From the NCBI RefSeq assembly GCF_050920415.1, contig NZ_CP169309.1: a stretch of 64,000 nucleotides of DNA; one strand, 5' to 3'. This document shows, in pieces, positions 18,315 through 26,289 of the stretch (position 1 is the stretch's first letter; each line of letters starts with the position of its first letter). A program made the translations under genes and the position numbers. Origin of the DNA: Escherichia coli. Its GTDB lineage: Bacteria > Pseudomonadota > Gammaproteobacteria > Enterobacterales > Enterobacteriaceae. A model generated the notes under the pieces. The model was not told the DNA's origin, did no database searches, and was given only the letters and a program-made list of their open reading frames with translations.

Positions 18315-18611
18315 CTACTTGTAAAACTGACGGAAATAGTCATCAACGGTCATAATGTTGAGGTCAAAATCAATATCCGGTAAGTCTAAGCATTTGAGCC
18401 TGATTAAATCTTCGATTTCACTTGCGGCTAACGATGTCGTTATTGCGAAGGAATTTTCATTCAATTGTCGTGGTATCCCATATTCATCAGCCACGATAGA
18501 GGAGAAATTCATATCATACATCAATGATCTTAACCTTAAGAACACTGAGGAATAAGATGATGGATAATCAAAAGAAACAACATAAGTATTGAACTTGTTT
18601 TTACCTTCCAT
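18315..18611 (-). CDS. ghoS: Type V antitoxin GhoS, sequence-specific endoribonuclease (98 aa)
   Basis: ORF MEGKNKFNTYVVSFDYPSSYSSVFLRLRSLMYDMNFSSIVADEYGIP... matches GhoS (formerly YjdK); upstream of ghoT on the same strand. Confidence 0.85.
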   Translation of the reverse strand: MEGKNKFNTYVVSFDYPSSYSSVFLRLRSLMYDMNFSSIVADEYGIPRQLNENSFAITTSLAASEIEDLIRLKCLDLPDIDFDLNIMTVDDYFRQFYK

Positions 18612-18840
18612 AATATGACTCCTATCAATATTAAAACGATCTGGGGACGCACAACTTATTAACCCCGATCGATGATTCTCATATAGGAGATATTCTTTTT
18701 TTTTTGCTCAGTAAAGGGGATGACTTGGGACAAGAAAACGCTCTCTCTGACCATTCTTTGTGCATCCCCCTACCCTTCAGATTCTCTCCTGCATCACACC
18801 GCGGAGAGCATGAAAAATATCGTGACTCTGTACTCTCCCA

Positions 18841-19113
18841 TCAACTGCGAATATCATCATACTCCCGCGTTTTATCAAATTCGTGTTTCGCAAATGGACA
18901 TAATGGGATAATTTTTCGTTTTTCCCGACGCATTTTTTCCACGACTTTCGCAACCAGCTGTTTACCAATCCCCTGCCCTTTCAGGCTTTCATCGACATCG
19001 GTATGTTCGATAATCGCTAAATTCTTGCCGGTCGGCACAAAGACAATTTCAGCAATTTGCTTGCCCTGTTCGTCATTAATGTAAAATTTATTGTGGCCTT
19101 CGCGTATTTCCAT
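18841..19113 (-). CDS. yjdJ: Small GNAT-like acetyltransferase-fold protein YjdJ (90 aa)
   Basis: ORF with Q/R-x-x-G-x-G/A acetyl-CoA-binding-like motif ([18 protein letters not shown]); conserved neighbourhood. Confidence 0.75.
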
Positions 19114-19124
19114 TTTACCCTCGC

Positions 19125-19355
19125 TTATTTATGACGGTATTTCAGCGCGCCGCTCGGGCACGTATCAATCACTTTAACCACAGTGGCAACGTCGACTTCA
19201 TCCGGCATGATCCACGGCTTTCGTTTGAGATTAAATAACTTGCCGTTGCCACGTACGCAATTGCCAGAATGCTGACATATCGCAGTGTTGAAATAGACAT
19301 CGATCTTTTCGCCGGTATAACAGCGATAACCCCCGTCCAGTAGCGCCTGATCCAT
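19125..19355 (-). CDS. yjdI: Small cysteine-rich protein YjdI (76 aa)
   Basis: ORF with multiple Cys (CYTG...CQHSGNC...CPSG) suggesting a metal-binding fold; 11 bp upstream of yjdJ on the same strand. Confidence 0.7.
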
Positions 19356-19535
19356 GACCTTCCCTCTCTCATCAGTATGGTTTTCACTATAAGCATAGCC
19401 CTGGAATCTTCATACAGCACTGGCAGTTTCCGTTGCCAGAGTCTCTTCCCCTATATAGCCAATCATTCTTACTCCCTTTGAATTACCCGCCTCATCAGAG
19501 ATAATGCTTAAGAAATTTGTCACACAAGGAAGCTG

Positions 19536-21167
19536 ATGAGACATTCATTGCCCTACCGTATGTTACGCAAACGTCCGATGAAATTGAGTACCACTGTGAT
19601 CTTAATGGTCAGCGCGGTACTGTTCTCGGTGCTATTGGTGGTGCATCTGATTTACTTCTCGCAAATCAGTGATATGACGCGAGACGGGCTAGCCAACAAG
19701 GCACTGGCAGTGGCGCGTACTCTCGCCGACTCGCCGGAAATCCGTCAGGGCTTGCAGAAAAAACCGCAGGAGAGCGGCATCCAGGCCATCGCGGAAGCCG
19801 TGCGCAAACGCAACGATCTGCTGTTTATTGTCGTTACCGATATGCAAAGTCTTCGCTACTCGCATCCTGAAGCCCAGCGTATTGGTCAGCCATTTAAAGG
19901 TGATGACATCCTTAAAGCGCTGAATGGCGAAGAAAATGTCGCTATCAATCGCGGTTTTCTGGCGCAGGCTTTACGCGTATTTACCCCCATCTACGATGAA
20001 AATCATAAACAAATTGGCGTGGTGGCGATCGGCCTTGAGTTAAGTCGCGTGACCCAACAGATCAATGACAGTCGCTGGAGCATCATCTGGTCGGTATTAT
20101 TTGGCATGCTGGTCGGGCTGATTGGCACCTGCATTCTGGTTAAGGTACTGAAAAAAATCCTTTTCGGCCTGGAACCCTACGAAATCTCCACGCTGTTTGA
20201 GCAACGCCAGGCCATGTTGCAGTCTATCAAAGAAGGCGTCGTTGCCGTGGACGATCGCGGCGAGGTCACGCTGATCAACGATGCCGCACAAGAATTGCTG
20301 AATTACCGTAAGTCGCAGGACGATGAGAAACTGTCGACGCTAAGCCACGCGTGGTCACAGGTGGTAGATGTCTCGGAAGTGTTACGCGACGGTACCCCGC
20401 GGCGCGACGAAGAGATTACGATTAAAGACCGGCTATTACTGATCAACACCGTTCCGGTGCGCAGTAATGGCGTTATCATCGGTGCCATTTCAACCTTCAG
20501 GGACAAAACTGAAGTACGTAAACTGATGCAGCGACTCGACGGTCTGGTCAACTATGCTGACGCGCTTCGTGAACGATCCCACGAATTTATGAATAAATTG
20601 CATGTGATTCTCGGATTATTGCATCTGAAGAGTTATAAGCAGTTGGAAGATTACATTCTCAAAACAGCCAATAACTATCAGGAAGAGATTGGCTCTCTGC
20701 TGGGTAAGATCAAATCTCCAGTTATCGCTGGTTTTTTAATCAGCAAGATTAACCGCGCGACCGATTTAGGCCATACGCTGATTTTAAACAGCGAAAGCCA
20801 GTTGCCAGACAGCGGCAGTGAAGACCAGGTCGCGACGCTGATTACCACGCTGGGAAATCTGATAGAAAACGCGCTGGAGGCATTAGGGCCGGAACCCGGT
20901 GGCGAAATTAGCGTAACATTGCACTACCGTCACGGCTGGCTGCACTGTGAAGTTAACGATGATGGACCGGGGATCGCACCCGACAAAATCGATCACATTT
21001 TTGACAAAGGTGTCTCGACAAAAGGAAGCGAGCGAGGCGTCGGTTTAGCACTTGTCAAACAACAGGTAGAAAATCTCGGCGGCAGCATCGCCGTGGAATC
21101 GGAACCCGGGATTTTCACACAATTTTTTGTCCAGATACCCTGGGATGGGGAGAGGTCGAACAGATGA
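19536..21167 (+). CDS. dcuS: C4-dicarboxylate sensor histidine kinase DcuS (543 aa)
   Basis: Two TM segments flanking a periplasmic PAS-like domain, cytoplasmic PAS and HATPase domains; overlaps dcuR start by 4 bp. Confidence 0.93.
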   Translation: MRHSLPYRMLRKRPMKLSTTVILMVSAVLFSVLLVVHLIYFSQISDMTRDGLANKALAVARTLADSPEIRQGLQKKPQESGIQAIAEAVRKRNDLLFIVVTDMQSLRYSHPEAQRIGQPFKGDDILKALNGEENVAINRGFLAQALRVFTPIYDENHKQIGVVAIGLELSRVTQQINDSRWSIIWSVLFGMLVGLIGTCILVKVLKKILFGLEPYEISTLFEQRQAMLQSIKEGVVAVDDRGEVTLINDAAQELLNYRKSQDDEKLSTLSHAWSQVVDVSEVLRDGTPRRDEEITIKDRLLLINTVPVRSNGVIIGAISTFRDKTEVRKLMQRLDGLVNYADALRERSHEFMNKLHVILGLLHLKSYKQLEDYILKTANNYQEEIGSLLGKIKSPVIAGFLISKINRATDLGHTLILNSESQLPDSGSEDQVATLITTLGNLIENALEALGPEPGGEISVTLHYRHGWLHCEVNDDGPGIAPDKIDHIFDKGVSTKGSERGVGLALVKQQVENLGGSIAVESEPGIFTQFFVQIPWDGERSNR

Positions 21168-21883
21168 TCAATGTATTAATTATTGATGACGACGCAATGG
21201 TCGCGGAGCTGAATCGTCGATACGTGGCACAAATCCCAGGCTTTCAATGCTGTGGAACGGCCTCGACGCTGGAGAAAGCCAAAGAGATTATCTTCAATAG
21301 CGATACGCCTATCGACCTGATATTGCTCGATATCTATATGCAAAAAGAGAACGGGCTCGATTTACTGCCTGTTCTGCATAATGCGCGTTGCAAAAGTGAT
21401 GTGATTGTTATCTCTTCCGCTGCCGATGCCGCAACCATTAAAGATTCGCTGCATTACGGAGTCGTGGATTACCTGATCAAACCCTTCCAGGCTACCCGCT
21501 TTGAAGAGGCGCTCACCGGCTGGCGGCAAAAGAAAATGGCGCTGGAAAAACATCAGTATTATGACCAGGCCGAGCTTGATCAGCTAATCCACGGCAGCAG
21601 CTCCAACGAGCAGGATCCTCGTCGCTTGCCAAAAGGCTTAACACCACAGACGTTACGCACGCTGTGCCAGTGGATTGACGCGCATCAGGACTATGAGTTT
21701 TCAACCGACGAGCTGGCTAATGAGGTTAACATCTCGCGTGTTTCCTGCCGTAAATATCTCATCTGGCTGGTCAACTGCCACATCTTGTTCACCAGTATCC
21801 ATTATGGCGTCACAGGTCGTCCGGTTTATCGTTATCGTATTCAGGCAGAACATTACTCACTACTTAAACAATATTGCCAATAA
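21164..21883 (+). CDS. dcuR: Response regulator DcuR (239 aa)
   Basis: Receiver domain (MINVLIIDDDAMV...DLILLDIYM) plus C-terminal HTH; translationally coupled to dcuS. Confidence 0.93.
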   Translation: MINVLIIDDDAMVAELNRRYVAQIPGFQCCGTASTLEKAKEIIFNSDTPIDLILLDIYMQKENGLDLLPVLHNARCKSDVIVISSAADAATIKDSLHYGVVDYLIKPFQATRFEEALTGWRQKKMALEKHQYYDQAELDQLIHGSSSNEQDPRRLPKGLTPQTLRTLCQWIDAHQDYEFSTDELANEVNISRVSCRKYLIWLVNCHILFTSIHYGVTGRPVYRYRIQAEHYSLLKQYCQ

Positions 21884-22451
21884 CGATCACGGTTATCTGT
21901 AAGTAATAATTATTACAGTAATGCAAAATACCCCTGGCACAAGTTACATCGTTCATCAGTAAAACTTGTGCCAGATCAAATATAATTCCCCCTCTCTCAC
22001 CGCTGAAAATTAATATCTCTTCGGATGAACGGTGTTTTTAATTTCAAAACGCTAACAAAAGTTAATTAACTATTATGTCGCCCACATTATGTGTATTTTT
22101 ACCCACAAATGGGTAGTTAAGAATAATCTATAAACCTGATGATACCTACCCTGAGAACAAAAATTATACCAATAAGTATCAATAAGATAGCAGCAAACAA
22201 AACATTAACATCTGCGTAGTACAAACTATAAACCCATCGCCAGAGAGTATTTCTCTCTGAAAAAACCGCTTATCACAGTGCATAAATTTGCCGCTGCTTT
22301 AATCAGCCAATATTCACTGTGAGGTATTTACTCAAGCCGGTAACGACCAAACGGATATTTAGTCAAGCTCTGAAAACAGTTCATACAAAACAGAACGTGA
22401 CTGTGATCTATTCAGCAAAAATTTAAATAGGATTATCGCGAGGGTTTACAC
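21884..22451 (+). promoter_or_regulatory. dcuB promoter and long untranslated leader
   Basis: About 570 bp AT-rich non-coding region between dcuR and dcuB; established site of DcuR/FNR control; individual sites not resolved. Confidence 0.4.
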
Positions 22452-23792
22452 ATGTTATTTACTATCCAACTTATCATAATACTGATATGTCTGTTTTATG
22501 GTGCCAGAAAGGGCGGTATCGCGCTGGGTTTATTAGGCGGTATCGGCCTGGTCATTCTGGTCTTTGTCTTCCACCTTCAGCCAGGTAAACCACCGGTTGA
22601 TGTCATGCTGGTTATCATTGCGGTGGTGGCGGCATCGGCGACCTTGCAAGCTTCGGGCGGTCTTGATGTCATGCTGCAAATTGCCGAGAAGCTGCTGCGC
22701 CGCAATCCGAAATATGTCTCCATTGTCGCACCGTTTGTAACCTGCACGCTGACCATTCTTTGCGGTACGGGCCACGTGGTTTACACCATTCTGCCGATCA
22801 TCTACGACGTTGCTATTAAGAACAACATCCGTCCGGAACGTCCGATGGCGGCAAGTTCTATCGGTGCACAGATGGGGATTATCGCAAGCCCAGTGTCGGT
22901 TGCGGTCGTATCTCTGGTTGCGATGCTGGGTAATGTCACCTTTGATGGTCGCCATCTTGAGTTCCTCGACCTGCTGGCAATCACCATTCCATCGACGTTA
23001 ATCGGTATCCTGGCGATCGGTATCTTCAGTTGGTTCCGCGGTAAAGATCTGGATAAAGATGAAGAGTTCCAGAAATTCATCTCCGTACCGGAAAACCGTG
23101 AGTATGTTTACGGTGATACCGCGACGCTGCTGGATAAAAAACTGCCGAAAAGCAACTGGCTGGCAATGTGGATCTTCCTCGGGGCAATCGCTGTAGTTGC
23201 ACTTCTTGGTGCTGATTCGGACCTGCGTCCATCCTTCGGTGGCAAACCGCTGTCGATGGTACTGGTTATTCAGATGTTTATGCTGCTAACCGGAGCGCTG
23301 ATTATTATCCTGACCAAAACCAATCCCGCGTCTATCTCAAAAAACGAAGTCTTCCGTTCCGGTATGATCGCCATCGTGGCGGTGTACGGTATCGCATGGA
23401 TGGCGGAAACCATGTTCGGTGCGCATATGTCTGAAATTCAGGGCGTACTGGGTGAAATGGTGAAAGAGTATCCGTGGGCCTATGCCATTGTTCTGCTGCT
23501 GGTTTCCAAGTTTGTAAACTCTCAGGCCGCGGCGCTAGCGGCGATTGTTCCGGTCGCGCTGGCGATCGGCGTTGACCCGGCATACATCGTGGCTTCAGCA
23601 CCGGCTTGCTATGGTTATTACATCCTGCCGACTTATCCGAGCGACCTGGCAGCGATTCAGTTTGACCGTTCCGGCACCACCCACATCGGTCGCTTCGTCA
23701 TCAACCACAGCTTTATTCTGCCGGGGTTGATTGGTGTGAGCGTATCGTGCGTCTTCGGCTGGATCTTCGCTGCGATGTACGGGTTCTTATAA
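22452..23792 (+). CDS. dcuB: Anaerobic C4-dicarboxylate (fumarate/succinate) antiporter DcuB (446 aa)
   Basis: Paralogue of dcuA in this window (shared motifs [14 protein letters not shown]); upstream of fumB. Confidence 0.93.
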
Positions 23793-23801
23793 ATGCACTT
23801 T

Positions 23802-23836
23802 GCGTGCCGCCCGTGACTGCGCGGCACGCCATTTTC
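23802..23836 (+). terminator. Stem-loop between dcuB and fumB
   Basis: Inverted repeat gcgtgccgc / gcggcacgc followed by aTTTTcg. Confidence 0.5.
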
Positions 23837-23869
23837 GAATAACAAATACAGAGTTACAGGCTGGAAGCT

Positions 23870-25516
23870 ATGTCAAACAAACCCTTTATCTACCAGGCAC
23901 CTTTCCCGATGGGGAAAGACAATACCGAATACTATCTACTCACGTCCGATTACGTTAGCGTTGCCGACTTCGACGGCGAAACAATCCTGAAAGTGGAACC
24001 AGAAGCCCTGACTCTGCTGGCGCAGCAAGCCTTCCACGACGCTTCTTTCATGCTCCGCCCGGCACACCAGAAACAGGTTGCTGCAATTCTTCACGATCCA
24101 GAAGCCAGCGAAAACGACAAGTACGTGGCGCTGCAATTCTTAAGAAACTCAGAAATCGCCGCCAAAGGCGTGCTGCCAACCTGCCAGGATACCGGCACCG
24201 CGATCATCGTCGGTAAAAAAGGTCAGCGCGTGTGGACCGGCGGCGGTGATGAAGAAGCGCTGTCGAAAGGCGTCTATAACACCTATATCGAAGATAACCT
24301 GCGCTATTCACAGAATGCGGCGCTGGACATGTACAAAGAGGTCAACACCGGCACTAACCTGCCTGCGCAAATCGACCTGTACGCGGTAGATGGCGATGAG
24401 TACAAATTCCTCTGCGTCGCCAAAGGCGGTGGCTCTGCCAATAAAACGTATCTCTACCAGGAAACCAAAGCCCTGCTGACTCCCGGCAAACTGAAAAACT
24501 TCCTCGTTGAGAAAATGCGTACCCTCGGTACTGCAGCCTGCCCGCCGTACCATATCGCGTTTGTGATTGGCGGTACGTCTGCGGAAACCAACCTGAAAAC
24601 CGTCAAGTTAGCAAGCGCTCACTATTACGATGAACTGCCGACCGAAGGGAACGAACATGGTCAGGCGTTCCGAGATGTCCTGCTTGAACAGGAACTGCTG
24701 GAAGAGGCCCAGAAACTCGGCCTTGGCGCGCAGTTTGGCGGTAAATACTTCGCGCACGACATCCGCGTGATCCGTCTGCCACGTCACGGCGCATCCTGCC
24801 CGGTAGGTATGGGCGTCTCCTGCTCCGCTGACCGTAACATTAAAGCGAAAATCAACCGCGAAGGTATCTGGATCGAAAAACTGGAACACAATCCAGGCCA
24901 GTACATTCCACAAGAACTGCGTCAGGCTGGTGAAGGCGAAGCGGTGAAAGTCGACCTTAACCGCCCGATGAAAGAGATCCTCGCCCAGCTTTCGCAATAC
25001 CCGGTATCCACCCGTTTGTCGCTCACCGGCACTATTATCGTGGGTCGCGATATTGCACATGCCAAGCTGAAAGAGCTGATTGACGCCGGTAAAGAACTGC
25101 CGCAGTACATCAAAGATCACCCGATCTACTACGCGGGTCCGGCGAAAACGCCTGCCGGTTATCCATCAGGTTCACTTGGCCCAACCACCGCAGGTCGTAT
25201 GGACTCCTACGTGGATCTGCTGCAATCCCACGGCGGCAGCATGATCATGCTGGCGAAAGGTAACCGCAGTCAGCAGGTCACCGACGCGTGTCATAAACAC
25301 GGCGGCTTCTACCTCGGTAGTATCGGCGGTCCGGCGGCGGTACTGGCGCAGCAGAGCATCAAGCATCTGGAATGCGTCGCTTATCCGGAGCTGGGTATGG
25401 AAGCTATCTGGAAAATCGAAGTAGAAGATTTCCCGGCGTTTATCCTGGTCGATGACAAAGGCAACGACTTCTTCCAGCAAATCGTCAACAAACAGTGCGC
25501 GAACTGCACTAAGTAA
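23870..25516 (+). CDS. fumB: Class I (Fe-S) fumarate hydratase FumB (548 aa)
   Basis: [36 protein letters not shown]...; assigned as fumB rather than fumA by linkage to dcuB. Confidence 0.93.
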
Positions 25517-25638
25517 CCTCTTCGGCCCAGCGCCTGGCAGCATGCTGCCAGGTGATCCCCCTGGGCCACCTCTTTTGCGATTGTAATTTCACGCTTGCTG
25601 GTGAATAGTCAGTATTTTCCCTGACTTGCGAACTCACC

Positions 25639-26289
25639 ATGACCCGCACACTCAAGCCGTTAATTCTTAACACCGGCGCACTGGCGCTAACGTTAATCCT
25701 GATTTATACCGGCATTTCGGCCAATGACAAACTCACCTGGCTGATGGAAGTGACACCGGTGATTATTGTCGTGCCGCTACTGCTTGCCACCGCTAAACGT
25801 TATCCGTTAACGCCGCTGCTCTATACGCTCATTTTCTTTCACGCCATCATCCTGATGGTCGGCGGGCAATACACCTACGCGAAAGTCCCCGTTGGTTTTG
25901 AGGTGCAGGAATGGCTGGGGTTGAGCCGTAATCCGTATGACAAGCTGGGGCATTTTTTCCAGGGGCTGGTGCCTGCACTGGTGGCGCGAGAAATTCTCGT
26001 TCGCGGGATGTACGTGCGCGGACGTAAAATGGTGGCGTTTCTGGTCTGCTGCGTGGCGCTGGCGATAAGCGCGATGTATGAATTAATCGAGTGGTGGGCA
26101 GCGCTGGCAATGGGTCAGGGAGCGGATGATTTTCTCGGTACCCAGGGCGACCAATGGGACACACAATCCGATATGTTCTGCGCGCTGCTTGGTGCATTAA
26201 CTACGGTGATATTCCTTGCTCGCTTTCATTGCCGCCAGCTACGGCGCTATGGCTTAATCACCAGAGCGCCGGAAGCGATTACCTCTTAA
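25639..26289 (+). CDS. yjdF: Inner-membrane protein YjdF (DUF2238-like)
   Basis: Multi-TM ORF in the conserved position next to fumB; stop TAA at 26287-26289 overlaps the melA stop. Confidence 0.7.
   Translation: MTRTLKPLILNTGALALTLILIYTGISANDKLTWLMEVTPVIIVVPLLLATAKRYPLTPLLYTLIFFHAIILMVGGQYTYAKVPVGFEVQEWLGLSRNPYDKLGHFFQGLVPALVAREILVRGMYVRGRKMVAFLVCCVALAISAMYELIEWWAALAMGQGADDFLGTQGDQWDTQSDMFCALLGALTTVIFLARFHCRQLRRYGLITRAPEAITS

Follow-up and report, generated by a model that had tools for sequence, protein, structure and literature searches.

The dcuR–dcuB gap of Escherichia coli as a probable composite control region with a candidate ribosome-site-masking leader

What occupies the long AT-rich stretch separating dcuR from dcuB in Escherichia coli: an extended leader RNA, promoter DNA, an overlooked small gene or a combination of these? 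DcuB is the main importer of fumarate, malate and aspartate for anaerobic respiration and also a co-sensor tuning the DcuS kinase. Due to this co-sensor role, the level of DcuB is regulated at many points. Further, dcuB mutants colonize the gut poorly (PMC10636207), and adaptation in mice repeatedly hit the gap upstream of the gene, through IS insertions and a point mutation (PMC5094792, PMC4674774). In the window, i.e., the whole 64,000-nucleotide stretch of contig NZ_CP169309.1 that was analysed, the ORF listing places dcuR at 21164–21883 and dcuB at 22452–23792, both on the + strand, which leaves a gap of 568 bp (21884–22451). Its GC content is 0.356 compared to 0.514 over the whole window, and ranges from 0.315 to 0.39 in 200-nt segments. 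RefSeq annotates the gene order dcuS-dcuR-dcuB-fumB both in E. coli N96, whose record is identical, and in a derivative of K-12, and places no feature in the gap of either. At least 80% of the gap was found in 5,411 of 5,426 complete E. coli genomes; thus, its length is no accident of this genome. The original prediction of a long, AT-rich gap was correct, and no ORF conserved in Escherichia occupies it. Based on the evidence described below, we conclude that the gap is mostly the known control region of dcuB. We assign a probability of roughly 60% to the reading that it forms a composite dcuB-fumB control region, in which an upstream part acting as DNA is followed by a leader with an anti-Shine-Dalgarno module.

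Linkage of dcuR and dcuB was detected in Escherichia, Salmonella, Citrobacter, Trabulsiella and Intestinirhabdus, with a gap of 552–910 bp in each genus. The GC content of the gap is 31–39% in the first four genera and 45% in Intestinirhabdus. An alignment of 15 gaps from these first four genera shows conserved blocks with unalignable sequence between them, and the blocks could also be placed in the remaining dcuR-linked loci outside this alignment. In Intestinirhabdus, the DcuR block, the −10 block and the leader motif described below are present, and the FNR pattern had no match. Upstream regions of dcuB homologs without an upstream dcuR (Klebsiella, Raoultella, Serratia, Proteus, Pectobacterium and others) are unrelated and contain none of the blocks. 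The comparison is, therefore, one of dcuR-linked loci, whose species are related and whose counts are not independent.

The upstream part begins just past the dcuR stop codon with a block (block A, approx. 21892–21929, GTTAT..GTAAyAATTATTA..TAATGaAAAAT) kept in Escherichia, Salmonella, Citrobacter and Trabulsiella in the 15-sequence alignment, which includes the perfect palindrome GTAATAATTATTAC (21903–21916). The palindrome resembles a Fur box, but this candidate was rejected, as dcuB-fumB was unaffected in a Salmonella Fur study (PMC3212961). A 12-bp perfect inverted repeat with a 17-nt loop (CTGGCACAAGTT/AACTTGTGCCAG, 21934–21974, + strand) is specific to Escherichia; its left arm shows no conservation beyond this genus and its right arm overlaps the FNR site. 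As RNA, the repeat would fold with −18.9 kcal/mol (z = −7.2, 0 of 200 shuffles equally stable); no U-tract follows and no terminator was called there. It may form the 3′ stem-loop of the dcuSR transcript.

The FNR site TTGTGCCAGATCAA (21966–21979) is the reverse complement of the K-12 ChIP-seq motif TTGATCTGGCACAA, which Myers 2013 lists for dcuB at position −132.5 (Table 1; PMC3688515), and the window coordinates reproduce this distance to the distal start exactly. It reads TTGTG-CCAG-ATCAA and matches the consensus TTGAT-N4-ATCAA at 8 of 10 positions; the pattern TTG.G..AGATCAA is conserved across the genera of the 15-gap alignment. The site is centred at −132.5 in every Escherichia sequence and at −133.5 to −136.5 elsewhere, far off the usual activating positions (−41.5 for class II; −61.5/−71.5 and similar for class I). 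In Myers 2013, 19 of 23 FNR-activated promoters had the site at −41.5 ± 4 (PMC3688515). Downstream of it, the AT-rich block TGTTTTTAATTTCAAAACGCTAACAAAAGTTAATTAACTATTAT (22033–22076; −72 to −29, counted from the distal start) is almost invariant over five genera and starts at −70/−71 in all species. We infer from sequence and position that this block is the DcuR site, and take it to be the footprint reported by Janausch 2004 and Abo-Amer 2004. The DcuR site reportedly lies at −359 to −400 when counted from the proximal start, with a new +1 that responds to DcuR 27 bp downstream of it, and the footprint of Abo-Amer 2004 is said to be AT-rich, just upstream of the −35 element, with tandem (T/A)(A/T)(T/C)(A/T)AA repeats. 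Operators of NarL and NarP follow the 7-2-7 consensus TACYYMT-N2-AKRRGTA. Inverted heptamers of this type, TACCCAC-AA-ATGGGTA (22100–22115), fit it at 13 of 14 positions and overlap the distal start; related pairs are TACCCAT-AA-AGGATTA in Citrobacter and TAATCAC-AA-AGGAGTA in C. amalonaticus and Trabulsiella. This putative NarL-type site, read from the sequence, is likely the seat of nitrate repression. The FNR, DcuR and nitrate signals that had been expected to converge on the gap are, thus, represented by conserved FNR, DcuR and NarL-type blocks within it (PMC3688515).

These blocks surround a promoter. The block TGTGTATTTTTA (22090–22101, + strand), identical in 27 of 27 sequences (window plus 26 loci), holds the −10 hexamer TATTTT (22094–22099) of the distal promoter P2. 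A gut-adaptive point mutation in K-12 lies at −354 from the dcuB ATG (PMC5094792); mapped to the window, it would change position 5 of the hexamer (22098) and create a better −10 element, TATTAT. The anaerobic sigma70 ChIP peak of K-12 at 4.34712 Mb (Myers 2013; PMC3688515) corresponds to −353 from the ATG. Since the FNR site is at −132.5 and the sigma70 peak falls here, the distal start, carried over from the K-12 data, is put at approx. 22105, 347 nt before the ATG. A promoter scan of the sequence returned one weak match (22098–22127), fewer than expected by chance. The upstream 40% of the gap would act as DNA, on which FNR and phosphorylated DcuR would jointly drive the distal sigma70 promoter, and the NarL-type site upon the distal start would confer nitrate repression. 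Taken together, we consider control region, distal start and long leader highly probable. The original prediction of a long leader stands in part: a leader of approx. 347 nt is probable, but not one of 570 nt, as the first approx. 220 bp of the gap are operator and promoter DNA.

A second 5′ end (P1) was published close to dcuB, at −20 from the ATG by Golby 1998 and re-mapped to −19 (PMC2760140); the former is position 22432 on the + strand. The original prediction had set a start near the ATG against a structured leader; such an end, 19–20 nt before the ATG, does exist (PMC2760140), but it coexists with the distal start. The promoter scan showed no good −10/−35 pair at the proximal site, and P1 sits in an AU-rich stretch predicted to be single-stranded. 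RNase E prefers to cleave at RN↓WUU. The flank of P1, GG↓AUU, agrees with this preference and, due to this flank and the predicted single strand, P1 could be a processing site rather than a start.

P2 transcripts would carry a structured untranslated leader of 347 nt (22105–22451, + strand; its start follows from the published FNR distance of −132.5). Equivalent leaders measure 311–514 nt in other genera where they could be placed. The leader is A-rich with more C than G (A134 T88 C70 G55; GC skew −0.14 to −0.24). Its predicted fold has −76.8 kcal/mol compared to −59.8 ± 5.1 for shuffled sequences (z = −3.36). No known RNA family was recognized: the best Rfam 15 matches in 21000–23500 score 7.8–20 bits against thresholds of 45–117, and a search of four related loci (Salmonella, Citrobacter, Intestinirhabdus) at gathering scores gave no match. 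Further, no intrinsic terminator was detected in 21700–22600, and the Term-seq supplement of Adams 2021 (E. coli, aerobic growth) has no entry for dcuB or dcuR. A literature search combining dcuB with leaders, sRNAs, Rho, Hfq and post-transcriptional control found nothing relevant.

The leader has a single deeply conserved module, consisting of the motif CCCAUCGCC and an adjoining 7-bp hairpin (22233–22259), which is found in five genera. The core of the motif (22233–22241, + strand), CCATCGCC, lies 171–219 nt before the ATG in 27 of 29 dcuR-linked loci; in Intestinirhabdus it is located 330 nt upstream, and Citrobacter Awk4 has a single substitution (CCATCACC). The 9-mer CCCATCGCC is common in the window (6 exact copies). 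As it is not rare, its meaning comes from its context, not from uniqueness. The hairpin CAGAGAG-UAUUU-CUCUCUG (22241–22259, + strand) is followed by GAAAAAAC without a U-tract and has an energy of −10.6 kcal/mol (z = −5.4). In the alignment, 91.7% of its cells are paired compared to 33–67% in slid controls, and RNAalifold gives the same hairpin. Both sides have changed in 5 of 7 pairs, and the covariation score was reached by 0 of 500 shuffles. Eleven GU cells versus four AC cells favour the + (dcuB sense) strand. In the window, a covariance model built from motif and hairpin matches at this site only (50.8 bits; next 13.6). Based on these results, the hairpin is probably a selected RNA structure. 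In the literature searched, no published description of the module was found; this candidate, seen in the sequence, appears to be new. Of the riboregulation and small ORFs proposed in the original prediction, the former gains support from the predicted leader fold (z = −3.36) and the covarying hairpin; no Escherichia-conserved small ORF, Rfam family or intrinsic terminator was found.

What could the single-stranded motif beside the hairpin do? The SD region of dcuB is GCGAGGG (22438–22444, + strand), with GAGGG 7 nt before the ATG (22452), and the 5′-CCC(A)UCGC-3′ of the motif is complementary to this 5′-GCGAGGG-3′. The sequence TCGCGAGGGT is kept in almost all dcuR-linked loci and differs in E. 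whittamii and Escherichia sp. E1V33 (TCGTGAGGGG) and in C. gillenii (TTGCGAGGGT). In 14 of 17 species, the motif complements the SD region better than any other of the 277–540 leader windows, and its helix with GCGAGGG is part of the whole-leader minimum free energy (MFE) structure of 12 of 16 species. For the leader studied here, this helix is not in the MFE structure, but occurs in the ensemble and the centroid. The predicted unpaired probability of the SD is 0.00–0.02 in 8 of 10 leaders (window 0.12, E. whittamii 0.21). When the motif is blocked, it is 0.16–0.51 in 9 of 10 species, a 4- to 40-fold gain in accessibility in 8 of 10. Compared to shuffled leaders, sequestration of the SD is tighter than in approx. 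96% for K-12 and C. amalonaticus S646 (p = 0.037 each), and in the window no stronger than in 30% of shuffles (p = 0.30). The duplex itself (−13.4 to −14.1 kcal/mol) is unexceptional against shuffled leaders (p = 0.08–0.86). Sequence variation hardly tests the helix by covariation because both partners are nearly invariant. In E. whittamii and Escherichia sp. E1V33, AAACCC/GAGGGU has jointly changed to AACCCC/GAGGGG, possibly a compensatory outer pair; E. coli E69 has CCCC with GGGU. In Citrobacter NCU1 and Awk4, changes without compensation (GCCAUCGCC, CCAUCACC) abolish the predicted pairing. Since these energetic controls are only modest, we propose sequestration of the ribosome site by the motif, a candidate anti-Shine-Dalgarno element, as a tentative hypothesis, more doubtful than the hairpin itself.

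According to this hypothesis, CCCAUCGCC would pair with GCGAGGG approx. 200 nt downstream and would keep the long transcript poorly translated as long as the helix stays closed and the leader uncut. The module would be missing from a short transcript or processed end that starts at −20. Recurrent gut-adaptive IS5 insertions are located at −118, and in a clone with an IS2 insertion at −338, anaerobic dcuB mRNA was above that of the ancestor (PMC5094792, PMC4674774). The IS5 position falls between motif and SD. If the long transcript masks itself, part of dcuB control would be post-transcriptional, which is undescribed in the literature searched. Self-masking would also help to explain the selection of leader-severing insertions, assign a role to the deeply conserved motif and hairpin, and make dcuB a two-start gene with two differently translated mRNAs. 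If the module is inert, the region is a textbook multi-input promoter and the finding an ordinary one.

An alternative is that the gap acts solely as DNA. The −20 start would then be the operative one, the far FNR and DcuR sites would work through looping or nucleoid proteins, CCCATCGCC would be a protein site, e.g., a TACCCAT-type NarL heptamer, and the adjacent palindrome would be incidental. The proximal 5′ end at −20/−19 has direct published support (PMC2760140), and the AT-richness resembles that of nucleoid-protein targets. The xxCCCAT before the motif fits a NarL heptamer at 6–7 of 7 positions in all genera, perfectly in C. amalonaticus, yet this leaves the invariant CGCC of the motif unexplained. 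The tight spacing between motif and ATG, 204–219 bp in most species, is also more reminiscent of DNA geometry than of RNA pairing. Nevertheless, the hairpin arms vary while staying complementary (5 of 7 pairs), which is the signature of an RNA helix and not of a protein-bound palindrome, and the excess of G-U over A-C cells on the + strand (11 to 4) points the same way. Further, the anaerobic sigma70 peak lies at −353 and not near −20, and the proximal site is without a credible −10/−35 pair. We, therefore, regard a purely DNA-based function as improbable.

Somewhat less improbable, yet still unlikely, is that the leader governs the fate of the transcript, either by loading Rho or by being cut by RNase E. 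The hairpin would then protect the 3′ end of a trimmed leader fragment or the 5′ end after cleavage, with the −20 end as a processing product. The A-rich composition with C70 versus G55 and a GC skew of −0.14 to −0.24 fits this, as does the GG↓AUU at −20, suited to RNase E and predicted to be single-stranded. Golby 1998 reportedly saw several transcripts of dcuB/fumB, some of which were probably products of degradation. An open frame of 84–134 codons, without amino-acid constraint, is kept in the equivalent leader of Salmonella, the C. freundii complex, Citrobacter NCU1/Awk4 and Intestinirhabdus, and its translation would be suited to shielding the RNA from Rho. On the other hand, the Term-seq supplement of Adams 2021 (E. 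coli, aerobic growth) shows no 3′ ends in or near dcuB, the hairpin is without U-tract, and the conservation of the single-stranded CCCAUCGCC beside it is left unexplained.

Very improbable, in comparison, is a small protein or leader peptide encoded by the leader in Escherichia. The longest + strand ORFs of the gap have 35 codons (GTG start, 22319–22426) and 26 codons (22139–22219), and all three differences between the window and K-12 in the former are synonymous. However, its GTG start is without SD, and in E. whittamii its third codon is a stop. The 26-codon ORF is likewise without SD, has 7 amino-acid changes compared to K-12 and has lost its start codon in E. albertii. Thus, scanning for short ORFs with a ribosome-binding site, as suggested in the original prediction, gave no supported candidate, and both ORFs, disrupted in sister species, were rejected as coding. 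A hypothetical ORF is annotated in the gap of related genera, but the long frame is deleted in Escherichia, where TAG/TAA stands directly upstream of the motif, and where it is present, there is no third-position bias (466/458/612; 16/19/15).

If the motif does mask the ribosome site, a trans-acting RNA might open it. Like dcuB, the small RNA FnrS (Rfam RF01796) is made under FNR control. Its hairpin-1 loop GCGAUGGG is fully complementary to CCCAUCGC of the leader, i.e., to the motif, with 8 perfect pairs, or 9 in Salmonella, Trabulsiella, C. sedlakii, C. amalonaticus S646 and Intestinirhabdus. Six of the 8 FnrS bases are located in the loop and have an unpaired probability of 0.89–1.0. In 14 of 14 species, the motif is the best leader site for the loop (p = 0–0.03 compared to shuffles). 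This analysis covers the loop, as RNAduplex with full-length FnrS and leader gave meaninglessly long duplexes. Once opening costs are subtracted, a net energy of only about −2 to −7 kcal/mol remains, and in the literature searched, dcuB is not reported as an FnrS target. Known targets of FnrS are repressed at their ribosome-binding sites, as far as is known via its 5′ end or central single-stranded region, whereas the match to dcuB uses the hairpin-1 loop. Judged from sequence, FnrS complementarity is a weaker lead than ribosome-site sequestration. It is a long shot that GCGAUGGG binds CCCAUCGC, frees the SD and activates dcuB translation as an anti-antisense RNA. If it did, FNR would act on dcuB at two levels, via the distal promoter and via FnrS binding to the leader made from it, forming a coherent feed-forward loop. 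To our knowledge, no activating FnrS target and no use of its conserved loop are known, and dcuB would be the first.

The proposed sequestration has a parallel in the rpoS 5′ UTR, in which an upstream segment masks the ribosome-binding site and is opened by DsrA, RprA and ArcZ; this leader is also subject to Rho. Both leaders are several hundred nt long, precede a regulated gene and have a helix joining the SD to a segment far upstream (predicted, in the case of dcuB), and either might be activated in trans by an RNA complementary to that segment. They differ in that there is no sequence relationship, and the dcuB helix is predicted only, with 7–9 bp, a bulge and weak energetic controls. By analogy, rpoS may indicate a way of working and not membership of a family. 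Leader ORFs of the mgtA/mgtL and corA/corL types in Salmonella offer a second comparison, since the long frame in Salmonella, the C. freundii complex, Citrobacter NCU1/Awk4 and Intestinirhabdus is kept through the RNA module; by analogy, it could couple leader translation to RNA structure or Rho. With 84–134 codons it is far longer than known leader peptides; it lacks a clear SD and does not occur in Escherichia, and no runs of regulatory amino-acid codons were noted in it.

The closest comparison is K-12 itself, where dcuB is said to have a proximal start (Golby 1998) and a DcuR-responsive distal promoter (Abo-Amer 2004). The arrangement in the window is the same: the orthologous K-12 dcuB-fumB locus has the same gene order, with a gap of 570 bp compared to 568 bp here (94% identical). 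None of the 34 differences, which are concentrated at 21950–22200, falls in the FNR site, DcuR block, −10 block, NarL-type site, motif, hairpin or SD. At −118, the IS5 target in gut adaptation, K-12 has CTAA and the window CTCA.

Two minor elements lie downstream of the module. A conserved block contains the CRP-like sequence TGTGATCTATTCAGCA (22402–22417; TGTGATCCATTTATCA in other genera), centred approx. 22 bp upstream of P1, which is not an activating position. A helix specific to Escherichia, UCACAGUGCAUA/UAUUCACUGUGA (22273–22322, + strand), is found in both the MFE and the centroid structure, with −15.5 kcal/mol when folded alone (z = −2.0); an A>G change within it in E. albertii keeps the pair as G-U.

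The intergenic region between dcuR and dcuB is already known as the region where multiple inputs control dcuB. According to the gene listing, dcuS (19536–21167), dcuR (21164–21883), dcuB (22452–23792) and fumB (23870–25516) are all encoded on the + strand; the RefSeq gene names of the identical E. coli N96 record and of a K-12 derivative are the same, and RefSeq annotates no feature within the gap in either of them. The original prediction of an AT-rich gap of about 570 bp without a large + strand ORF was borne out, as the gap (21884–22451) spans 568 bp with a GC content of 0.356 (vs. 0.514 in the window) and its longest + strand ORFs comprise 35 and 26 codons. The stretch was found in 5,411 of 5,426 complete E. 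coli genomes. When one genome per species was surveyed (80 dcuB loci), dcuS-dcuR-dcuB synteny was limited to Escherichia, Salmonella, Citrobacter, Trabulsiella and Intestinirhabdus, and fumB followed dcuB in every fetched locus extending that far. Across these five genera the gap measures 552–910 bp and is never short, so its length is no chance feature; its GC content is 31–39%, except in Intestinirhabdus (45%).

The gap is 100% identical to that of E. coli N96, from a Tibetan pig, and about 94% identical to that of nearly all other E. coli; only seven records reach at least 99%. Nucleotide identity to K-12 (window 18384–25951) amounts to 98.5% for dcuS, 96.0% for dcuR and 97.5% for dcuB and fumB, and the DcuB protein is identical to that of K-12. 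The window genome seems to represent a divergent Escherichia lineage under the E. coli label. Upstream of dcuS, the N96 record (locus L002) carries an IS3-family transposase pseudogene (window ~18384–19355; L002:1–972) and a truncated yjdI missing its C-terminus, where K-12 carries intact yjdI, yjdJ and ghoS. In E. coli S7 (locus L084; one complete genome), the gap is broken after about 298 bp (junction ~22181) and followed by lambda-like phage tail genes, which separates dcuB from its distal promoter. In Salmonella, the sRNA SdhX has been reported to pair with the dcuB-fumB spacer (PMC6393394); the 77-bp spacer here (23793–23869) shares 98.7% identity with that of K-12.

When 15 gaps from four genera were aligned, short and sharply conserved blocks stood out, separated by unalignable sequence of variable length. 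Just 3′ of dcuR, block 21892–21929 contains the palindrome GTAATAATTATTAC (21903–16), present in all four genera; a Fur box was rejected here, the likeness being a resemblance only and dcuB-fumB being reported as Fur-independent in Salmonella. Further conserved blocks are the FNR site TTGTGCCAGATCAA (21966–79), an AT-rich block of 44 bp (22033–76), the invariant TGTGTATTTTTA (22090–22101), CCCATCGCC with an inverted repeat (22233–59) and, within the final 50 bp of the gap, TGTGATCTATTCAGCA (22402–17) and TCGCGAGGGT, which precedes the dcuB ATG. A perfect 12-bp inverted repeat (21934–21974), 51 nt past the dcuR stop, occurs in Escherichia only. As RNA it folds with −18.9 kcal/mol (z = −7.2). 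It lacks a U-tract, and the FNR site overlaps with its right arm; possible readings are a 3′ stem-loop of the dcuSR mRNA or a DNA feature affecting FNR binding. Two bp past the FNR site lies a perfect TATAAT (21981–21986), for which no −35 partner was seen; several genera keep ATCAAATATAAT. If this were a −10 element, FNR would cover the spacer of that promoter and thereby repress it.

For dcuB, Myers et al. (2013, PMC3688515) listed TTGATCTGGCACAA as the FNR motif detected by ChIP-seq and placed it at −132.5 from a known start; they also located a sigma70 peak, rising under anaerobiosis, at 4.34712 Mb in K-12. With K-12 numbering anchored via the mutation-table coordinates of Lourenco et al. 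(2016, PMC5094792), this peak falls at −353 from the ATG. TTGATCTGGCACAA is the reverse complement of 21966–79; adding 132.5 to the FNR centre leads to base 22105, 347 nt before the ATG, and our own measurement reproduced the spacing in every Escherichia sequence. In 2004, Abo-Amer et al. reportedly identified a novel dcuB promoter that responds to DcuR and whose +1 lies 27 bp downstream of the DcuR site, and Janausch et al., in the same year, are said to have footprinted DcuR at −359 to −400 relative to the older start, presumably corresponding to ~22032–22073; a start at 22105 agrees with both. The partly conserved TACCCAC-AA-ATGGGTA (22100–15) forms a 7-2-7 heptamer pair, the textbook NarL/NarP arrangement, and this predicted site on the distal start would account for nitrate repression. 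The sole NarL site listed in a database for dcuB is a predicted heptamer at the ATG, whose deletion was proposed in a reassessment (PMC2718512). A point mutation selected in the gut at −354 (Lourenco et al., 2016, PMC5094792) corresponds to position 22098, where it changes TATTTT in the putative −10 element to TATTAT; we read it as a promoter-up mutation. The older dcuB start was mapped 20 nt before the ATG (PMC2760140). This 5′ end (22432) falls between GG and AUU, within AU-rich sequence that is predicted to be single-stranded and immediately precedes the motif-SD helix proposed below; it would be as consistent with cleavage by RNase E as with a promoter.

A transcript from 22105 would carry 347 untranslated nt (A134 T88 C70 G55); the equivalent leader measures 311–514 nt in other genera with placeable blocks. 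The proposed long leader probably exists: transcription from the distal promoter would yield a structured leader RNA covering about 60% of the gap and not all 568 bp. Its fold reaches −76.8 kcal/mol compared to −59.8 ± 5.1 for dinucleotide shuffles (z = −3.36; none of 100 as stable). Small ORFs, also suggested originally, failed for lack of conservation: within Escherichia, codon 3 of the 35-codon ORF is a stop in E. whittamii, and the 26-codon ORF has no start in E. albertii and differs from K-12 in 7 residues. Riboregulation fared better in part, in that a covarying hairpin adjoins a candidate anti-Shine-Dalgarno (anti-SD) motif, but neither an Rfam match (region and related loci searched) nor an intrinsic terminator was found in the leader. 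The 5′ bases UGGGUAGU of the distal transcript (22110–22117) can pair with dcuB codons 4–7, ACUAUCCA (22463–22470), closing the whole leader into a single domain in the predicted fold; Citrobacter and Trabulsiella could form a comparable pairing, with one bulged base.

Of the 29 dcuR-linked loci examined, 27 have the motif core CCATCGCC (motif, 22233–22241) 171–219 nt ahead of the ATG; in Intestinirhabdus it lies 330 nt upstream, and Citrobacter Awk4 has one substitution in it. Directly abutting is a 7-bp stem with a 5-nt loop (22241–22259). In an ungapped alignment of 24 sequences, 91.7% of the hairpin cells were paired, compared to 33–67% with the 3′ arm slid; five of seven pairs had both-sided changes (AU to GC, GC to AU, etc.), and none of 500 shuffles reached the covariation score. 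RNAalifold gave the same structure. With 11 G-U cells against 4 A-C cells, the pattern favours the dcuB-sense strand. The isolated hairpin folds with −10.6 kcal/mol (z = −5.4), and a covariance model of motif and hairpin matched the 64-kb window solely at 22233–59. Based on these comparisons, the hairpin is regarded as a selected RNA structure. The module of hairpin and candidate anti-SD motif was not found described in the literature searched.

The motif, 5′-CCC(A)UCGC-3′, is complementary to the SD region 5′-GCGAGGG-3′ (22438–22444) with one bulged A. When each whole leader was folded independently, the motif-SD helix was part of the minimum-energy fold in 12 of 16 species, and summed pair probabilities were high in most of the others (window, 5.1). 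In 14 of 17 species, no other 12-nt leader window complemented the SD region as well as the motif; the real strength of the anti-SD idea is that the best SD complementarity coincides with the highest conservation in the leader. The predicted SD unpaired probability was 0.00–0.02 in 8 of 10 leaders (window, 0.12; E. whittamii, 0.21) and rose to 0.16–0.51 in 9 of 10 when the motif was held single-stranded. On the other hand, the duplex energy was not unusual against shuffled leaders (p = 0.08–0.86), and SD sequestration exceeded that of shuffles only modestly (p = 0.037 in K-12, 0.037 in C. amalonaticus S646, 0.30 in the window). Motif-SD covariation is uninformative because both partners are nearly invariant: AACCCC with GAGGGG in E. 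whittamii and Escherichia sp. E1V33 suggests compensation, but is offset by CCCC with GGGU in E. coli E69 and by uncompensated changes in two Citrobacter lineages. Overall, we tentatively assign a probability of about 0.35–0.4 to the motif acting as an anti-SD.

In mouse-gut evolution experiments, the K-12 gap was hit repeatedly: several populations carried IS5 at −118 (22334, which lies between motif and SD), and other hits were IS2 at −338 (22114) and the −354 point mutation; the tested IS2 clone had higher anaerobic dcuB mRNA than its ancestor (PMC5094792, PMC4674774). These mutations and the raised mRNA could reflect the loss of a negative leader element, and IS-borne promoters or relief of silencing would explain them equally well.

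A trans-acting partner of the motif could be FnrS, an anaerobic sRNA under FNR control, which we picked post hoc and which contains GCGAUGGG. The 122-nt FnrS sequence is found in E. coli genomes with 100% identity and reaches 134.8 bits with the Rfam model RF01796, whose consensus structure places bases 21–26 of the GCGAUGGG stretch in the loop of hairpin 1. The complementarity to CCCAUCGC extends over 8 bp, and over 9 bp in species with a G in front of the motif (Salmonella, Trabulsiella, C. sedlakii, C. amalonaticus S646, Intestinirhabdus). The motif was the best leader site for the loop in all 14 species tested, pairing more strongly than in 97–100% of shuffled leaders, with a net energy of about −2 to −7 kcal/mol after opening costs. 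The literature searched contained no FnrS-dcuB link, and the predicted binding is a lead, not a finding.

In Salmonella arizonae/diarizonae, the C. freundii complex, Citrobacter NCU1/Awk4 and Intestinirhabdus, the leader is 130–230 nt longer, and a + strand frame of 84–134 codons stays open through motif and hairpin (loci L007:2600–2854, gap 317–571; L009:2571–2882, gap 287–598; L023:2484–2888, gap 394–798). The products are annotated solely as hypothetical proteins and match no NCBIfam family, and substitutions show no third-position excess (466/458/612 in Citrobacter, 16/19/15 in Salmonella, 36/27/36 between genera). Possibly the frame is translated as a leader ORF without selection on the peptide that it encodes. 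It is absent from Escherichia, Trabulsiella and the C. amalonaticus group; therefore, module conservation in Escherichia is not due to coding. A second leader hairpin, GTAGCA-AUGGAGnnnn-UGCUAC, occurs in Salmonella, Citrobacter and Trabulsiella (L007 ~2580–2601; L009 ~2565–2586), not in Escherichia; in C. sedlakii (GUGGCA/UGCUGC), + strand pairing is kept through G-U. Its loop holds the start codon of the long frame in Citrobacter and Intestinirhabdus, while in Salmonella the ORF begins about 20 nt further on, with this AUG lying in another frame.
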